Below, in pieces: positions 11,624 to 62,426 of a stretch of 64,000 nucleotides of DNA (the first letter of the stretch is position 1; each line of letters starts with the position of its first letter). Both the position numbers and the translations under genes were made by a program. The stretch is from Candidatus Woesearchaeota archaeon. GTDB lineage: Archaea > Nanobdellota > Nanobdellia > Woesearchaeales > GW2011-AR15. Under the pieces are notes generated by a model. It was not told where the DNA came from. It was given only the letters and a program-made list of their open reading frames with translations, and did no database searches. Where the stretch lies: positions 15,030 to 79,029 of the forward strand of contig JAFGRO010000076.1 of the NCBI GenBank assembly GCA_016935095.1, read 5' to 3'.

Positions 11624-11792
11624 TGGGGACAGAGGGATTTGAACCCTCATCCGGTGGTCACTTCATCAAGCGACTGACCACATTCTAAGTCATTGTCTTT
11701 CGACTCATCGCTCCAACACTGGAGCCACCTATTCTAGCCAAGATGTACCCTTCTTGAATTTGATTTTTTCAAAAGGCTTATACTATGTCCCC
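11624..11792 (-). tRNA. Intron-containing tRNA gene (169 nt; isotype/anticodon not resolved by eye; probably more than one intron, one in the D-loop)
   Basis: Minus-strand ends form a perfect acceptor stem GGGGACA ... TGTCCCC-A. Canonical T-arm GAGGG-TTCAAAT-CCCTC. D-stem GTA/TAC flanks a ~23-nt hairpin insert (TTTTGAA...TTCAAGA). About 95 nt of extra sequence sits between the arms. Confidence 0.5.
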
Positions 11793-46300: not shown

Positions 46301-47914
46301 ATGTCTCCAATGACAGCACTTTCCGCTACATATAATGTAGATCTAACTAAATATAATGCTTTTCTATTAGAAAGATTAAAAAGTGAATTCCGGGCACGTT
46401 TATTACCAGAATCAACTGGAAGAAGACGAGTTTACCGAGATGGAGACCAACCTTGTGATTTATCAGAAGCACTTTATAATGATAGGCAAATTTGTTTACA
46501 GGGTGATCCTGGTTCTGGAAAAACTATGGCATTATTAAATGAAGGAATTAGAATTGTACAAGGAGAAGAAAGAAGTGAATATGGATTAACAACCCTTCTT
46601 TTAATGGAATTACATAGTTTAAGTACTGGATTGGATTTTTCAGCTCCTTATGAATTCTTTACAGCTTATTTACAAGGAATTGCACAAAAACTAGGTTTAT
46701 CAGATGACTTCCCTCAACAAGTGTATCAAGATCCTGGTACTGTTATTACACTTGATGGTCTAGATGAAATTGCTGATCCACAAATAAGAGAAAAAGTAAT
46801 ACAAAGCATCAATGAAGCCAAAGCAGCAGCAATTGCATCAAATGGAAAGTTGCCACAAATAATTGAAGTAGCAACTCGACCTTGGGTAACTGTTGAAGGT
46901 TTTATACCTTATGCCTTAGAACCATTAACAGAAGTACAAATGGCACAAATTTTTGTAGGTGAGTTAAATGCATATTTTGATAGTATTTATGGTGAGGATG
47001 GATTGAAAGGAAAAGCTAGAGAAACTCAAATCAGGCAAAGAACTGATGATTTTCTCATGTATCTTTCACAAAGATCCTGGAGTCATATATTAAGAAATCC
47101 ATCATATTTGAGATATGCAGTACATCATCAAAATCCATTACCAGGAACATTTGGAGAATTTCTTGAAGCAGCAACTGATGGTTTTTTAATAGGTATTCAA
47201 GCAAGAAGAGATTTAGTGGAAGAATTAAATGTAGTTGTAGATAGACATCATCAACGACTTGGACAACATATATCTGATATGATTCCAGTATTAAGAGAAA
47301 TGGCATGGGTAGCACATACAGAAAAAAGTCGAGCTTTACCTTTAGATAAAATATTATCTATAGAAAGGTGGGATCCAAATGGTAGCTATTCAAATTCACT
47401 TTTATCTCAATTACCTACTGAAAGAAAAGAACAAATGCTTGATAAAATTGCGGAGAAATCACCTTTTTTAGCTCGCTATGAAGCAGAAGGAATTACTACT
47501 AAACATTATTTTTTTACACATCTAGGATTACAAGAATTTTTAGCTGGACAAGCACTTGCAGATAGAATAAATGAAGGGAAAATATCTCTTGATGAAGTAG
47601 ACAATATGCTTGATAATTCTTGGTGGAGACAACCTGTCCTTTATTCTTTTTCTAGTTTAAACTGGAATCAGGCAAATGCATTAGCTGAAAAAGTAATACA
47701 GAGACAGGATAGATCTTTAATGGCTGATGCTTATCATATGGTACAGGGAAAAGTACTTCTACATTACTTAGAAGCTTTTGAAGCAGCAAATAGTGAATTA
47801 CAGACAGAGACTACAATTGATGAGCAAGAGCTAAGGGCAGAATTAAAAAAGGCTGAGGGATCATCTTCTCAGAAACAAAAGAGAGGAAGATTAGGTTTTT
47901 TGGAAAAAAAATGA
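46301..47914 (+). CDS. NACHT-type STAND NTPase (short, 537 aa; no obvious effector or repeat sensor domain)
   Basis: Walker A GDPGSGKTMALL and NACHT-style Walker B VITLDGLDEIAD. Distinct A/T-ending codon dialect (tta, caa, gga, aga, gaa). Confidence 0.6.
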   Translation: MSPMTALSATYNVDLTKYNAFLLERLKSEFRARLLPESTGRRRVYRDGDQPCDLSEALYNDRQICLQGDPGSGKTMALLNEGIRIVQGEERSEYGLTTLLLMELHSLSTGLDFSAPYEFFTAYLQGIAQKLGLSDDFPQQVYQDPGTVITLDGLDEIADPQIREKVIQSINEAKAAAIASNGKLPQIIEVATRPWVTVEGFIPYALEPLTEVQMAQIFVGELNAYFDSIYGEDGLKGKARETQIRQRTDDFLMYLSQRSWSHILRNPSYLRYAVHHQNPLPGTFGEFLEAATDGFLIGIQARRDLVEELNVVVDRHHQRLGQHISDMIPVLREMAWVAHTEKSRALPLDKILSIERWDPNGSYSNSLLSQLPTERKEQMLDKIAEKSPFLARYEAEGITTKHYFFTHLGLQEFLAGQALADRINEGKISLDEVDNMLDNSWWRQPVLYSFSSLNWNQANALAEKVIQRQDRSLMADAYHMVQGKVLLHYLEAFEAANSELQTETTIDEQELRAELKKAEGSSSQKQKRGRLGFLEKK

Positions 47915-55416: not shown

Positions 55417-56433
55417 ATGACTGAAAAAACAAGCCTGGGAGAGGTAATTGTTGATAGTGTTGAACTCAGGAAACTATATGAATTGAGAAAACCCAAATAT
55501 GAGAGACTTACGGATTTAGTCTATCTAATATTGAATTCCTCTCTGGAAAGAAACAACATAAGAATACATTCAATGAAAAAAAGAGTGAAAGATTATTCAA
55601 GTTTTCTTGAAAAGGTTGAAAGAAAGAGATATAAAGATCCGTTTTTACAATGTACGGACCTGGCAGGATGCAGGATAATGTGTTTGTTTCTTTCGCAAAT
55701 AGAACAGATAAAAAAAATAATTAATGAAGAATTCGAAGTTATTGAGATAAGCGACAAAAAAACCACAAAAAAATTTGACCAGTTCGGTTATTTGTCTTTG
55801 CATATGCTGGTAAAAAGCCCTAGAAAACGACTAAATTTAATAGAATATTCAGAGCTTAAAGATTTGGTTTGCGAGATTCAGATAAGGACGATACTACAGG
55901 AAGCTTGGGCTGAAATTGAGCATTACCTGAATTATAAGACTACAAAAGAAGAGAGAAATGAAGATCTGCTTAGAAAGATTTTCTCTTTGGCAGGGATGTT
56001 TGAAGTGGCGGACTCAACATTTGAAGATATCCACAAAGGCTTTTCAAAGCTCATCACAAAAAGACTAGCGGGAGATAAAGAGACAATTACAGGTCTGAAT
56101 CTGTTCAAATTTTCCCAAACCTATTTTTCATGGTATAAGCAGGAATGGAATAAAGTAACAGAAAGAGCATTTTATAAACTGAGCAATGAAATAAAAAAGA
56201 TTAATATTAAATCAATAAATAAAATAAAAGCACTGCTGGAAAAATATAATTCAGAGCTTAAAAAATATGAGCTTTATCACAAGGAAAAAGAAAAAAAAGT
56301 CGAATTAAGATTTTTTTCTCCGGTTGGGTTAATAAGGGCAGCGCTTGCCTTGGAATATGGGAAGAAATTTGATTTGATATTCGGGTTGAAGGGATATAGT
56401 GAGAGAGTTAGGAGAGAAACTGAAAGTGGTTAA
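55417..56433 (+). CDS. RelA/SpoT-type nucleotidyltransferase (small alarmone synthetase / toxSAS-like) with ~150-aa C-terminal extension
   Basis: Synthetase-domain motifs RVKDYSSFLEKVERKRY ... CTDLAGCRIM ... FGYLSLHMLV ... EIQIRTILQEAWAEIEHYLNYK. Confidence 0.65.
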   Translation: MTEKTSLGEVIVDSVELRKLYELRKPKYERLTDLVYLILNSSLERNNIRIHSMKKRVKDYSSFLEKVERKRYKDPFLQCTDLAGCRIMCLFLSQIEQIKKIINEEFEVIEISDKKTTKKFDQFGYLSLHMLVKSPRKRLNLIEYSELKDLVCEIQIRTILQEAWAEIEHYLNYKTTKEERNEDLLRKIFSLAGMFEVADSTFEDIHKGFSKLITKRLAGDKETITGLNLFKFSQTYFSWYKQEWNKVTERAFYKLSNEIKKINIKSINKIKALLEKYNSELKKYELYHKEKEKKVELRFFSPVGLIRAALALEYGKKFDLIFGLKGYSERVRRETESG

Positions 56434-57326: not shown

Positions 57327-57677
57327 TTAACCTATAATCTTAACTTTTGAACCTTTTGGATTATTTTTTATTAGATCTAGTATTGTTATTGCTTTTGATC
57401 CTTTAGAGAGGATTTTTTCTTTAGCTGAACCTGAAAAACTGTATGCTGCAATAGTAATTTTTTTATTTAAATCACCCATGCCGAGAACCTTTCCCGGAAC
57501 AACAATGGTTTCATTATCTTTGCTAAATCTGTCTATTTTTGATAAATTTACTATTCTTCTTTTTTTGGTAGGTTTTTCTAAATCAAGAGCAATCCTCTTC
57601 CATATTTTAACATCCTGTTTAATTGAAACAGTCTTGAGATCTGTTATCAATGAATTTAAATGCATATTTGATTTCAT
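57327..57677 (-). CDS. rpl18e: 50S ribosomal protein L18e (eL18)
   Basis: eL18-like sequence. Start moved to the internal MKSN (57675-57677) because the longer ORF would overlap the tRNA-Leu gene. Confidence 0.7.
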   Translation of the reverse strand: MKSNMHLNSLITDLKTVSIKQDVKIWKRIALDLEKPTKKRRIVNLSKIDRFSKDNETIVVPGKVLGMGDLNKKITIAAYSFSGSAKEKILSKGSKAITILDLIKNNPKGSKVKIIG

Positions 57678-57702
57678 TTTTTTATATAATCTTTTATTAT
57701 AA

Positions 57703-57812
57703 TGCGGGGGACGTGATTTGAACACGCGCAGGCACTAAGCCACATGGACCTCAACCATGCCCGTTTGACCATTCCGTATTCATTTTATTAATGAATTCTC
57801 CGGCACCCCCGC
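57703..57812 (-). tRNA. tRNA-Leu(GAG) with a ~22-nt hairpin intron in the D-loop (non-canonical position)
   Basis: Minus strand GCGGGGG-TG-CCG-GAG[AATTCATTAATAAAATGAATAC]GGAATGGTCAAA-CGG-G-CATGG-TTGAGGT-CCATG-variable arm TGGCTTAGTGCCTG-CGTG-TTCAAAT-CACG-T-CCCCCGC-A. Anticodon loop TT-GAG-GT. Long variable arm (type II). No encoded CCA. Confidence 0.75.
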
Positions 57813-57834: not shown

Positions 57835-58623
57835 TTAAATTGATTTTTCAAATTCACTGAGTCTAGTATTGAAAATATCAATGGCGGTTAATATTATTTT
57901 TTTAGGGGATAATTGGCCCCATGATTCCAAATAAAATATATAATTCTGTTCATTATTTGCAAGAGTTATTGCATCTGAAACATCTGTACAGGCTTCACAC
58001 AAGTGGCATTTAGTTAAATTTTTTTCATTGACAGACAGTTTCTTGTTTTTCATCTCAAAGACATCTACAGGGCAGGAAACCAGGACAGCTTCAGGATTAT
58101 TTAATTTTTTATTGTCAATATTGATTTCTGGTTTTAATTTATAAAAAATATGACCTGGTGCCCATTTTGAATGTTCTTTTCCTGTACCTAAAATGGCTGT
58201 GGCTTCTAATTCAAGCTCCTGGTCTTTTAATAATTTAACAATAATTGTTTTAGGATAAACAGGCTTAACCTTTGGATCAGTTGATTTTATATCAGAGGCA
58301 TAGACTGTTTTAGGTCCATTTGCCTTTAGAGTAAGCTTTAGACTGCATCTTGCACAACCTTCTCCTTTGCATTTGCATTCAGAGATAAGGTTATATGACT
58401 TTAAATCAGTGGTCAAGGTTACTAAACCAAGCCTGTGTGCTATAATCTCATCATAAAGTGCAGAGCTGTTTTTTCTGAATTCTACATCCTCAATTGCCAT
58501 TGTAGGAACATTGATTAACATAACCCTTCTTAGAGTATTGCTATATGCTGAAGATGTGTCTTCTAACAAAAATGAGATTTTGTCTTTGGATTTTTCTAAA
58601 ATTTTGAATTTCATAAACAACAC
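57835..58623 (-). CDS. rpoD: DNA-directed RNA polymerase subunit D (RpoD/Rpb3) with 4Fe-4S-type Cys cluster insertion
   Basis: Rpb3-like dimerisation-domain signature plus a CxxC...CxxC cluster (CKCKGEGCARC ... CHLCEAC). The true start may be the internal MKFKIL. Confidence 0.85.
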   Translation of the reverse strand: MLFMKFKILEKSKDKISFLLEDTSSAYSNTLRRVMLINVPTMAIEDVEFRKNSSALYDEIIAHRLGLVTLTTDLKSYNLISECKCKGEGCARCSLKLTLKANGPKTVYASDIKSTDPKVKPVYPKTIIVKLLKDQELELEATAILGTGKEHSKWAPGHIFYKLKPEINIDNKKLNNPEAVLVSCPVDVFEMKNKKLSVNEKNLTKCHLCEACTDVSDAITLANNEQNYIFYLESWGQLSPKKIILTAIDIFNTRLSEFEKSI

Positions 58624-60233: not shown

Positions 60234-62426
60234 TTATTTGTACAGGCTTTCAACAACTTCCTTTATCTTGTTGGCTTTTTTGTCTCCGATTAGCTTTATT
60301 TTTTTCAAATCTTCTTCGGATGCATTTATTATGTTTTTGACGGATTTAAATTCATCTAACAATGGCTTTGCAAGCACACCGCCTACACCGGGCAGTGCAG
60401 AAATTATATACTCCTGTTGTTCTTTTAATGTCAATGGCTTAACACTATGCAAAGTAAAAGAAGTATCTTTCTCTATTTGTTCTTTTTTTGCAATAATATG
60501 TAGTAATTGTGCTGTTTCTTCAGAATTTTTAGTGTATATTATAGAGATTTTATAATCAATGGCAATAGTTGCAATCATTCCCTGAATTACATTAGGATGA
60601 AGATTTCTTTGAGTGTAGATATCCTCCTTACCTTCGATTATTAATAAGGGGCACTCATATTTTATCAGGTCTCTTATCTGGGTCAATAATCTCTTATCAA
60701 TAATTGAATCAACAAAATCCTGGACTGTTTTATGCTCTGCAACTACTCTTGAACTTAGCAGGTAATCTCCAATGTCTAATTTCTGGAGGTTTATCTTAAC
60801 ACCTGATTCGATTAAATTCTTTATAATTCCAGAGCCTTTTTCCCTGTAATCTGCATACACTATGACTTCCTGCTCCGGCTTGACAAAGTCAGATATTTTT
60901 TTAGTCTTTTTAATCTCAAACCCTTTTTTTAATTCATCAAGAATTTTATACATCCTTTTTTCTTTATGGAATGCAGACCAGCGGTATGGTTCGTCTCTGG
61001 TTTTTTTTGCTATCAGAACAATTATTTTTCCTTTTTCATGCCTTCCTGTACGTCCTTTTCTCTGGATTGTGCGGATTGCGCTGGGTATAGGTTCATAAAA
61101 TATTACTGAATTTACAGAAGGAATATCTAATCCCTCCTCACCTACTGACGTCATGCAGATTACATTGAATTCACCGTTTTCAAATTCTTTTAAAAGTTCA
61201 ATCTGTTTTTTTTGTGTTAGTCCAGAATTTTTCTTTTTTGCCTGGCCGACAAACATCTTTGCTTTCACATTTTCCAGCTTATTTAATTCAGAAACTATTT
61301 TTACAATTGAATCTCTGTATTGAGAAAACACAATAATTTTAGCTTTTGGATTGGCAGTAATTTCTTTTTTTACAATATTCTTTAATTCATTTAACTTGGG
61401 ATGCTCAATTTTCAATTCCTTGAGTGTTCTGGCTTTTATTAAAGCAGACCTGAAGTTTAAATCTCTGGTAAGATTTTTTACTGCTTTTACTCTAGTAGAC
61501 CTTGCTTTTGCGACTAGCTCTTCCAGATATTCATTTAATGAGCTTATTGATTGTGTTTCAAGCAGTTCAAGCGCATGCTGGACTTTCATTGCCTCAGCTA
61601 ATAATGAAACACTCTTAAATAATTCAATATCTTTTTCTCCTTGCACAATTCTTGCATGTAATTCAGACTGCAAGGCCAATAAATCTCTTTTTGAATAATT
61701 TTCAATCCTTATGTCAACAATGCCTAGACCTCTGATTTCATGTAATTTTGATTTATAGCAATCTTCCAGGAATTTTTTAATTTCAAGAAAGATTTTTGGC
61801 AGCTCCAGGTAAATCCAGTTTATCTTTGTTTCGTGGATATATGGCTTAACATCAGGATCTTCTTCAGTTCTTACTTCAACTTCCTCTATAAACAGGTTAT
61901 TGCAAACTTCTTTTATCTTTTCTAAGTCGCTCCCAGGAGAAGCTGTCAATGCAATCACTCTTGGATATTTTGAATGTTGTTTATATTGTTTAGCGAGCCA
62001 TACATATGAATAATTCCCTGTAGCGCGGTGTGCCTCATCAAAACCAAGAAGAGAAAACTCCTCCAGGTTTATTCTCTTTGTTATAATATCATTTTCAAGA
62101 CCCTGGGGAGTGGAAAAAATTATTTTTGCTTTTGTTGACAGTTCAGCTCTTTTTTCAGGTTTTACAAATCCTGTGAAAACAGCTAATTTAGCCTCATCTA
62201 TTTCAAAATACTTTCTGAAAGTCTCATAATACTGGTTAATTAAGGGTCTTGTAGGACCCAAAAACAATATTTTTGATTCAGGATAAAGCTTTAATCTTTG
62301 TGCAGCGAGCATTAAGAAAACATTTGTTTTTCCAAGGCCTGTCGGCAATACAACCAATGTGTTTTTTTCAACGCACGTTGCAAGAATTGTCTGCTGATAT
62401 AGGCGCGGAGTAAAGTTCTTAATCAT
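60234..62426 (-). CDS. hef: Hef helicase-nuclease (SF2 helicase + ERCC4/XPF nuclease + HhH2)
   Basis: Walker A LPTGLGKT and DEAH box (GFDEAHRA). C-terminal DIGDYLLS...AEHKTVQDF nuclease motif region. GVGGVLAKPLL HhH2 motif. Confidence 0.85.
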   Translation of the reverse strand: MIKNFTPRLYQQTILATCVEKNTLVVLPTGLGKTNVFLMLAAQRLKLYPESKILFLGPTRPLINQYYETFRKYFEIDEAKLAVFTGFVKPEKRAELSTKAKIIFSTPQGLENDIITKRINLEEFSLLGFDEAHRATGNYSYVWLAKQYKQHSKYPRVIALTASPGSDLEKIKEVCNNLFIEEVEVRTEEDPDVKPYIHETKINWIYLELPKIFLEIKKFLEDCYKSKLHEIRGLGIVDIRIENYSKRDLLALQSELHARIVQGEKDIELFKSVSLLAEAMKVQHALELLETQSISSLNEYLEELVAKARSTRVKAVKNLTRDLNFRSALIKARTLKELKIEHPKLNELKNIVKKEITANPKAKIIVFSQYRDSIVKIVSELNKLENVKAKMFVGQAKKKNSGLTQKKQIELLKEFENGEFNVICMTSVGEEGLDIPSVNSVIFYEPIPSAIRTIQRKGRTGRHEKGKIIVLIAKKTRDEPYRWSAFHKEKRMYKILDELKKGFEIKKTKKISDFVKPEQEVIVYADYREKGSGIIKNLIESGVKINLQKLDIGDYLLSSRVVAEHKTVQDFVDSIIDKRLLTQIRDLIKYECPLLIIEGKEDIYTQRNLHPNVIQGMIATIAIDYKISIIYTKNSEETAQLLHIIAKKEQIEKDTSFTLHSVKPLTLKEQQEYIISALPGVGGVLAKPLLDEFKSVKNIINASEEDLKKIKLIGDKKANKIKEVVESLYK

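Follow-up and report, generated by a model that had tools for sequence, protein, structure and literature searches.

In a genome contig of Candidatus Woesearchaeota (DPANN), a gene for a leucine transfer RNA, tRNA-Leu(GAG), carries a hairpin insert in its D-loop. The gene lies at 57703-57812 on the minus strand of the 64-kb stretch that was analysed as a whole (the window), in the spacer between rpoD and rpl18e. Compared with intronless orthologs, the insert sits after G15, and its splice-motif design is conserved and covaries among related genes. Our preferred reading, to which a probability of about 80% is given, is that of a working tRNA-Leu(GAG) gene interrupted by a 26-nucleotide (nt) archaeal intron that would be spliced by proteins between G15 and U16/17. 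A D-loop intron gene of this kind is real and worth annotating. It belongs to a type of archaeal tRNA intron that is already known, is fairly ordinary and will not surprise a specialist.

A tRNA-Leu gene with an insert in its D-loop

Read from 57812 to 57703 on the minus strand, the gene is GCGGGGGTGCCGGAG AATTCATTAATAAAATGAATACGGAA TGGTCAAACGGGCATGGTTGAGGTCCATGTGGCTTAGTGCCTGCGCGTGTTCAAATCACGTCCCCCGCA (exon 1, intron, exon 2). Its parts are as follows.

57703..57812, minus strand: tRNA-Leu(GAG) gene, 110 nt with the intron and 84 nt spliced (covariance model R1; ARAGORN on the spliced sequence).
57798..57812, minus strand: exon 1, GCGGGGGTGCCGGAG, positions 1-15 (acceptor 5' strand, U8, G9, D-stem 5' strand CCGG, A14, G15).
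57772..57797, minus strand: predicted intron, AATTCATTAATAAAATGAATACGGAA, 26 nt, between G15 and U16/17 (spliced ortholog alignment and cut rule).
57703..57771, minus strand: exon 2 (D-loop remainder UGGUCAA, D-stem 3' strand, anticodon arm, variable arm, T-arm, acceptor 3' strand, A73).

The original prediction had placed a tRNA-Leu(GAG) here between rpoD and rpl18e, and every stem that it described is present. The acceptor stem is GCGGGGG/CCCCCGC with the discriminator A at 57703, the anticodon arm is CATGG-TTGAGGT-CCATG with the anticodon GAG at 57750-57752 (minus strand), the variable arm has 15 nt and the T-arm is GCGTG-TTCAAAT-CACGT. A perfect hairpin of 7 base pairs (bp), ATTCATT/AATGAAT, interrupts the D-loop after G15, at a non-canonical position as had been claimed. 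The anticodon loop TTGAGGT is uninterrupted, and the insert is hence no intron of the canonical position (37/38). A group I intron has a catalytic RNA core of a few hundred nucleotides. The insert is only 26 nt long, and no group I match was found with Rfam at curated thresholds or in E-value mode.

The spliced sequence of 84 nt has the features of a class II tRNA-Leu, namely a D-arm with G18 and G19, U33, G37, a long variable arm, a TTCAAAT loop and A73. ARAGORN called it tRNA-Leu(gag) with a full cloverleaf, and its minimum free energy structure in RNAfold is that cloverleaf. Exon 1 consists of the same 15 nt that begin the intronless orthologs at loci L041, L072, L063 and L078.

General tools did not report the gene. 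ARAGORN called no tRNA in the whole window, and its intron search on the raw window, which permits introns in the anticodon loop only, gave no call either. Rfam at curated thresholds also found no tRNA in the window, and in E-value mode it returned only a partial match (RF00005, 21.6 bits with a threshold of 29, model positions 10-63). At its curated threshold RF00005 likewise overlooks the intronless 84-nt tRNA-Leu(GAG) of L072 (1910-1993), a gene readily called by ARAGORN and by the ortholog covariance model (107.5 bits). The Rfam negatives therefore carry little weight for this tRNA-Leu gene.

Further evidence came from orthologs. Through RpoD alignment 80 loci were gathered, one genome per species, and ARAGORN often called an intronless tRNA-Leu(GAG) directly after rpoD. 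The slot between rpoD and rpl18e is shared with 21 such intronless genes from other species. Of the intronless orthologs that occupy this genomic position, 17 served to build a covariance model (R1). R1 produced a single match in the window, at 57703-57812 (minus strand), with 87.3 bits, an E-value of 1.2e-18 and model positions 1-86; the surplus bases were confined to the D-loop. Applied to 85 related loci, R1 located a tRNA-Leu of 84-191 nt immediately behind rpoD in about 75 of them, and about nine of the loci L001-L086 have no tRNA in the spacer. The statement that other archaea have a tRNA-Leu at this operon position was thereby borne out. The presence of a tRNA-Leu with an insert in its D-loop is far beyond chance, and the observation is confirmed.

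The splice motif and the probable ends of the intron

In the precursor, the 5' strand of the D-stem can pair with a stretch of the intron that copies its mature partner. The elements of the motif are listed below, with a caret for a predicted cut.

57800..57803, minus strand: 5' strand of the central helix H, D-stem C10 C11 G12 G13, predicted to pair with intronic ACGG before splicing.
57774..57777, minus strand: 3' strand of H, intronic ACGG (positions n-5..n-2 of the intron), which repeats the ACGG (22-25) of the true 3' strand of the D-stem.
57797..57799, minus strand: 5' bulge A14 G15^A, three unpaired bases between H and the hairpin h', predicted cut between 57798 and 57797.
57778..57796, minus strand: hairpin h', ATTCATT, loop AATAA, AATGAAT, 7 bp, abutting ACGG.
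57771..57773, minus strand: 3' cut region A A^U, predicted cut between 57772 and 57771, with no closing outer helix.

Helix H consists in the window of C-G, C-G, G-C and G.A, or three of four pairs; all four are formed in the relatives L082, L002, L038 and L048. The outer helix of a strict bulge-helix-bulge (BHB) motif was sought by eye in several registers and none was found, and U8 and G9 have no partner in the GGUC that follows. Because the 3' bulge is left without a closing outer helix, this is not the strict BHB. The strict form (hBHBh') has two closed bulges of 3 nt. Here the 5' bulge AGA is well formed and the 3' site is flanked by H on one side only. What is present is H, one closed 3-nt bulge, a contiguous h' and a second cut site beside H, and the cuts predicted from this arrangement would restore a normal tRNA with the D-loop AGUGGUCAA. 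As judged from the sequence, the motif is the relaxed HBh' form of the BHB, the class of Marck and Grosjean (PMC4090602, PMC5829648). The BHB that had been looked for at the insert boundaries is thus found in this relaxed form only, and for 26 nt, not for the 22 nt originally proposed.

The design recurs in relatives. The closer relatives L082 (identical to L083), L084, L085 and L086, whose RpoD is 63-67% identical, all have an intron of 30-33 nt at the same site; this set comprises five loci with four distinct sequences and does not include the closest relative, P0002. Locus L002 has a 44-nt intron at this site and a second intron. These introns are divergent in sequence and share one layout: CCGG, AG^A, a hairpin, CNGN and A[AGT]^TGG. 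The introns of L002 and L085 are still recognisably related to that of the window at the 5' end (L002 AACTCACTAAT, L085 AATCATTAT, window AATTCATTAAT), and compensating changes in the hairpin are seen.

The layout was examined in a set of 25 distinct tRNA-Leu genes that each have an intron at this site; in several of them the anticodon loop differs from GAG. The metagenome scan pattern that contributed to this set fixed the exon bases (CCGG) and the first intron base A; it did not fix the 3' strand of H, h' or the 3' bulge. In all 25 genes at least three of four H pairs are formed between intron positions n-5..n-2 and bases 10-13, and this holds for that register only. The genes average 3.48 H pairs; no neighbouring offset exceeds a mean of 2.28, and none of 2000 shuffles exceeds 1.96. 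In an alignment anchored at the ends (A3), pairing is seen in 75.8% of cells and, after shuffling, in 56.8%. The covariation score is 0.489 versus 0.174 shuffled; none of 500 shuffles reached 0.489, and structures slid by 1-3 columns scored at most 0.223. All 24 distinct sequences form the first pair of h', for which four pair types occur. In 24 of the 25 genes the intron begins with A, which is partly forced by the search pattern; the first base of the AA^U region is A in all 25, and TGG always follows. The HBh' design at the D-loop site is conserved with strong covariation across the 25 genes.

Where does the intron begin and end? Intronless orthologs fall into two D-loop classes, one of 9 nt (AGTGGTCAA) and one of 11 nt (AGYCTGGTCAA), and those with the CCGG/ACGG stem of the window mostly have the former. 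A spliced alignment of the window to the ortholog profile excises 26 nt, AATTCATTAATAAAATGAATACGGAA. The product, GCGGGGGTGCCGGAG^TGGTCAAACGGG..., matches the intronless L041 and L072 through the D-arm, and its 9-nt D-loop, AGUGGUCAA, is that of L041, L072, L063 and L078. From spliced L002 the product differs by one base (in the T-loop, in exon 2), although RpoD of the two is only 60% identical. In the canonical BHB the first two anticodon bases lie within the 4-bp helix and the bulges hold the cuts (Yoshihisa, 2014; PMC4090602), a geometry in which both cuts lie 2 nt 3' of the respective strand of H. When this cut rule was applied to CCGG/ACGG, precisely the 26-nt ends defined by the orthologs were obtained. 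Taken together, the orthologs, the BHB cut rule and the conserved pairing register point to an intron of 26 nt rather than 22 nt, most likely at 57772-57797 between G15 and U16/17, with an expected junction ...GCCGGAG^UGGUCAAACGG. ARAGORN was also run on all deletions of 18-31 nt around the insert, and it accepted most of them; it is too permissive for fixing the ends.

Several observations count against this reading. Helix H of the window has only three standard pairs beside its G.A. An EndA (tRNA splicing endonuclease) of strict specificity would not be expected to cut, as the 3' site lacks an outer helix. The minimum free energy fold of the precursor prefers a competing GCCG/UGGU pairing, so single-sequence folding alone would have misled; the HBh' fold, evaluated from its dot-bracket structure, has -38.6 kcal/mol compared with -40.2 kcal/mol for the minimum, a cost of 1.6 kcal/mol. 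The whole precursor folds only modestly better than shuffled sequences (z -1.94). Of the 25 comparison genes, 16 came from the pattern that fixed exon bases and the first intron base; the nine that were not found through it show the same design. Finally, an excision of 24 nt would give the 11-nt D-loop found in some orthologs, and ortholog length alone does not settle the boundary.

This last alternative, an intron of the same kind with 24 nt excised and the D-loop AGAAUGGUCAA left behind, is unlikely and is the one that survives best. A GAAT repeat at both junctions would allow five placements of the cuts with an identical product (junction ...GGAGAAUGGUC). The 11-nt D-loop (AGYCUGGUCAA) occurs in many orthologs, including L073 with the same CCGG/ACGG stem, the product is accepted by ARAGORN, and the covariance model alignment puts AAU in the D-loop. 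However, all five placements break the cut rule: the 3' cut would come flush after H without a bulge, or the 5' cut would come within h'. Relatives that have no GAAT repeat (L082 ...CCGGAT^TGG, L002 ...CCGGAG^TGG) would need a cut flush with H, and the orthologs closest in their exons that have the CCGG/ACGG stem mostly carry the 9-nt loop.

Could the insert be retained, either in a decaying pseudogene or in a functional tRNA with an enlarged D-loop? General tRNA finders do reject the gene as it stands. Yet the exons are strongly constrained, with all stems intact and the single difference from L002 noted above, and the slot in an essential operon is conserved in about 75 of 85 loci. The covarying splice-motif design has been kept across lineages despite sequence turnover, which neutral decay does not predict. 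A D-loop of 35 nt with a sequestered D-stem strand would break the tRNA core. Retention is thus very improbable.

The original prediction was an intron of 22 nt, AATTCATTAATAAAATGAATAC, which would leave the D-loop AGGGAAUGGUCAA. It corresponds to the visually obvious hairpin with its flanking bases. The resulting 13-nt D-loop is seen in none of the 21 intronless orthologs, the exact deletion is not called as a tRNA by ARAGORN, the pairing of the conserved CNGN block with bases 10-13 is left out of account, and there is no BHB geometry at these ends. These boundaries have to be given up, with hardly any chance left to them; the kind of element proposed, an intron in the D-loop of a tRNA-Leu, stands. 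An assembly artefact or a repeated mobile element is the least probable account and can be dismissed: the contig does come from a metagenome assembly, but the same organism is also represented by an independent Logan assembly (L081, run SRR13394437), which has the insert start and the adjacent exon up to the end of its contig, the insert occurs only once in the window even when three mismatches are allowed, and relatives carry inserts at the identical site.

Related loci and other features of the window

In Woesearchaeota and related lineages, the tRNA-Leu(GAG) between rpoD and rpl18e is a hot spot for introns. A tRNA-Leu(GAG) could be recognised after rpoD in 66 species loci; of these genes 21 lack introns, and one intron is present in 29, two in 14 and three in two (L005, L026). 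The introns occupy about 17 positions, with 37/38 the commonest, followed by 21/22, 59/60, 23/24, 60/61, 15-17 and 29/30 (uncertain by a few bases); the sites include the D-arm, the anticodon stem, the variable arm and the T-loop. With zero to three introns in 66 orthologs, this gene amounts to a small natural experiment that shows how introns are gained and lost and how structure constrains them.

Two of the related loci have a reading frame of LAGLIDADG type between rpoD and an intact tRNA-Leu(GAG) (L010, 3343-4354; L067, 3299-4184; Pfam LAGLIDADG_3, E-values 4.5e-13 and 2e-07, respectively). In both the frame extends into the tRNA. A defunct 5' piece of a tRNA-Leu, 17-18 nt long and ending in the D-loop, is found upstream of the frame; the remnant in L067 equals the start of the downstream gene, and that in L010 comes from a different allele type. 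This arrangement has the look of homing, or of an endonuclease-linked allele having taken the place of the resident gene. A tRNA with a giant endonuclease-bearing intron was considered for these loci and rejected, because an intact tRNA-Leu follows the reading frame. In addition, the upstream 18-nt fragment of L010 could not pair with the 3' half of the gene when both sequences were read, and the repeat in L067 is not complementary to D-stem bases 10-13. No match to a group I intron model was found at either locus.

The HBh' decoy design at 15/16 is found in three settings: the tRNA-Leu(GAG) of a clade of Woesearchaeota, other metagenomic tRNA-Leu genes, with anticodons that are apparently TAG, CAG and others, and an unrelated tRNA of the window, probably tRNA-Trp, described below. 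It is an old idea that tRNA introns protect against mobile elements. We would offer only as a long shot that 15/16 is a preferred and possibly selected intron site, and that D-loop introns spread or persist by breaking the target sites of endonuclease or integration cassettes like those of L010 and L067. If this were true, such break-up of target sites would be a concrete and testable case of the protection.

A second tRNA gene appears to be hidden in the window at 11624-11792 (minus strand, 169 nt), where ARAGORN and Rfam overlooked it. A scan of the window for an acceptor stem together with a T-arm gave two signatures only, the tRNA-Leu gene and this one, with acceptor GGGGACA/TGTCCCC, T-arm GAGGG-TTCAAAT-CCCTC and discriminator A. 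The sequence is probably a tRNA-Trp(CCA) with two introns.

11743-11777, minus strand: candidate tRNA-Trp intron 1, 35 nt at 15/16, with H = GTAT/GTAC (four of four pairs) and a 6-bp hairpin.
11659-11718, minus strand: candidate tRNA-Trp intron 2, 60 nt at 37/38, with three of four H pairs and the anticodon stem as outer helix.

Splicing as predicted would leave 74 nt, which ARAGORN calls tRNA-Trp(CCA); the D-stem of this product is weak. The reading as tRNA-Trp was obtained with the splice-motif rule and not by brute-force intron removal, which was tried with about 35,000 candidates and set aside as non-discriminating after yielding thousands of ARAGORN solutions. A probable tRNA-Trp intron of the same design and at the same position supports the HBh' D-loop reading of the tRNA-Leu.

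Euryarchaeal tRNA-Trp introns contain a C/D-box guide RNA. In the 60-nt intron, UGAUGA and CGAUGAG resemble box C, and the 5' end UGGAGC can pair with GCUCCA of the anticodon-loop region. No clear box D was seen in it and its Rfam matches are weak (snoR128, 18 bits), so that a guide RNA is not claimed. Elsewhere in the window, 47024-47113 (minus strand) gives a weak match to the C/D-box family snoR64 (26.9 bits with a threshold of 45, E-value 0.86) and has motifs like boxes C and D; it could be an archaeal C/D-box small RNA or chance.

The neighbours of the tRNA-Leu gene follow the order S13-S4-S11-RpoD-tRNA-L18e-L13-S9, with every gene on the minus strand. Without the tRNA, this is the classic archaeal cluster. 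The two immediate neighbours are given below.

57835..58614, minus strand: rpoD (RNA polymerase subunit D), the upstream neighbour (Pfam PF01000 and PF01193).
57327..57680, minus strand: rpl18e, the downstream neighbour, 117 amino acids (aa) from ATG 57680 (Pfam PF17135 and PF00828; alignment with four homologs).

The rpoD stop codon lies 22 nt ahead of the tRNA. RpoD of the window is 100% identical to a Ca. Woesearchaeota protein at NCBI, and its close homologs all come from genome bins of Woesearchaeota or Nanoarchaeota, which identifies the host as a DPANN archaeon. The ribosomal protein cluster is flanked by a 338-aa protein with a RelA/SpoT nucleotidyltransferase domain (55417-56433, plus strand) and by a 730-aa Hef-like helicase with an ERCC4 nuclease (60234-62426, minus strand).

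An unrecognised tRNA can also distort the annotation of its neighbours. The long L18e reading frame of the window, which starts at GTG 57725, is an artefact, as had been suspected from its overlap with the tRNA. Its extension, 57681-57725 (minus strand), is the translated 3' part of the tRNA (MFKSRPPHYNKRLYKK), and four L18e homologs start at a conserved MKSN... that corresponds to ATG 57680. The same false N-terminal extension, MWLSACACSNHVPRILQ..., is found in a public gene call at L085 (2391-2816). In both cases it stems from the unrecognised tRNA. The tRNA-Leu gene and the candidate tRNA-Trp, the two tRNA genes found in the window, both escape ARAGORN and Rfam run at curated thresholds, owing to introns that lie elsewhere than in the anticodon loop. 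When DPANN genomes are annotated, genes overlooked in this way can pass for missing tRNAs, split tRNAs or incomplete genomes. In a 2026 preprint, tRNA-Trp was listed as 'missing' in 30 of 123 complete Woesearchaeales genomes. The candidate two-intron tRNA-Trp at 11624-11792 suggests another explanation for such absences.

Proposed splicing and known systems

Cleavage, ligation, the enzymes involved and the exact cut positions are proposed here from the sequence. In the precursor, the 5' strand of the D-stem (C10-G13) would pair with the intronic decoy ACGG instead of its mature partner and so form helix H. The 5' cut would be held by the 3-nt bulge A14 G15^A between H and the 7-bp h', and the 3' cut would be made at AA^U, two bases beyond H, where a closing outer helix is absent. 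EndA would thus cut after G15 and before U16/17, and the ligase RtcB would join the exons. This would release CCGG for pairing with the true ACGG (22-25), and the result would be a class II tRNA of 84 nt whose D-loop, AGUGGUCAA, has 9 nt. After splicing, G15 would be available for the Levitt pair with C48.

Introns of this type have been studied in vitro. HBh' introns in the D-loop, those of Methanopyrus kandleri tRNA-Glu at 20b/21 and of Aeropyrum pernix tRNA-Thr, have been shown to be cleaved by EndAs of broad specificity (PMC5829648, PMC3241643). Heavy disruption of tRNA genes has been associated with DPANN EndAs that carry an L3 insert, and the genomes analysed included one of Woesearchaeota (PMC5829648, PMC3241643). 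Like pre-tRNA-Glu(UUC) of M. kandleri and pre-tRNA-Thr(UGU) of A. pernix, the gene of the window has a D-loop intron outside the anticodon loop that would be spliced by proteins. As in those introns, H and h' enclose one well-formed bulge, no helix closes the second cut site, and a pairing of exon with intron takes the place of a mature tRNA helix. The differences are in position, in the make-up of H and in the host. The intron of the window is at 15/16 rather than at 20b/21 as in M. kandleri tRNA-Glu, and its H is formed by the 5' strand of the D-stem and an intronic decoy of the 3' strand. The host is a mesophilic, AT-rich member of the DPANN (Woesearchaeota).

With the canonical hBHBh' intron at 37/38, the intron of the window would share cuts placed 2 nt 3' of each strand of a 4-bp helix, in a 3-nt bulge, and presumably the enzymes EndA and RtcB. 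It differs in lying outside the anticodon loop, in having no outer helix h, in its open 3' bulge and in an H of three standard pairs and a G.A. Intron-rich tRNA genes, some with multiple introns, have been described in Thermoproteales and in ARMAN/DPANN (Sugahara, 2008; Fujishima, 2010, 2011; reviewed in PMC4090602, PMC4033280). The tRNA-Leu orthologs resemble these genes in their many intron positions, in having up to three introns per gene and in rapid gain and loss among relatives. The present comparison differs in following one gene at a conserved genomic position through Woesearchaeota and related lineages.

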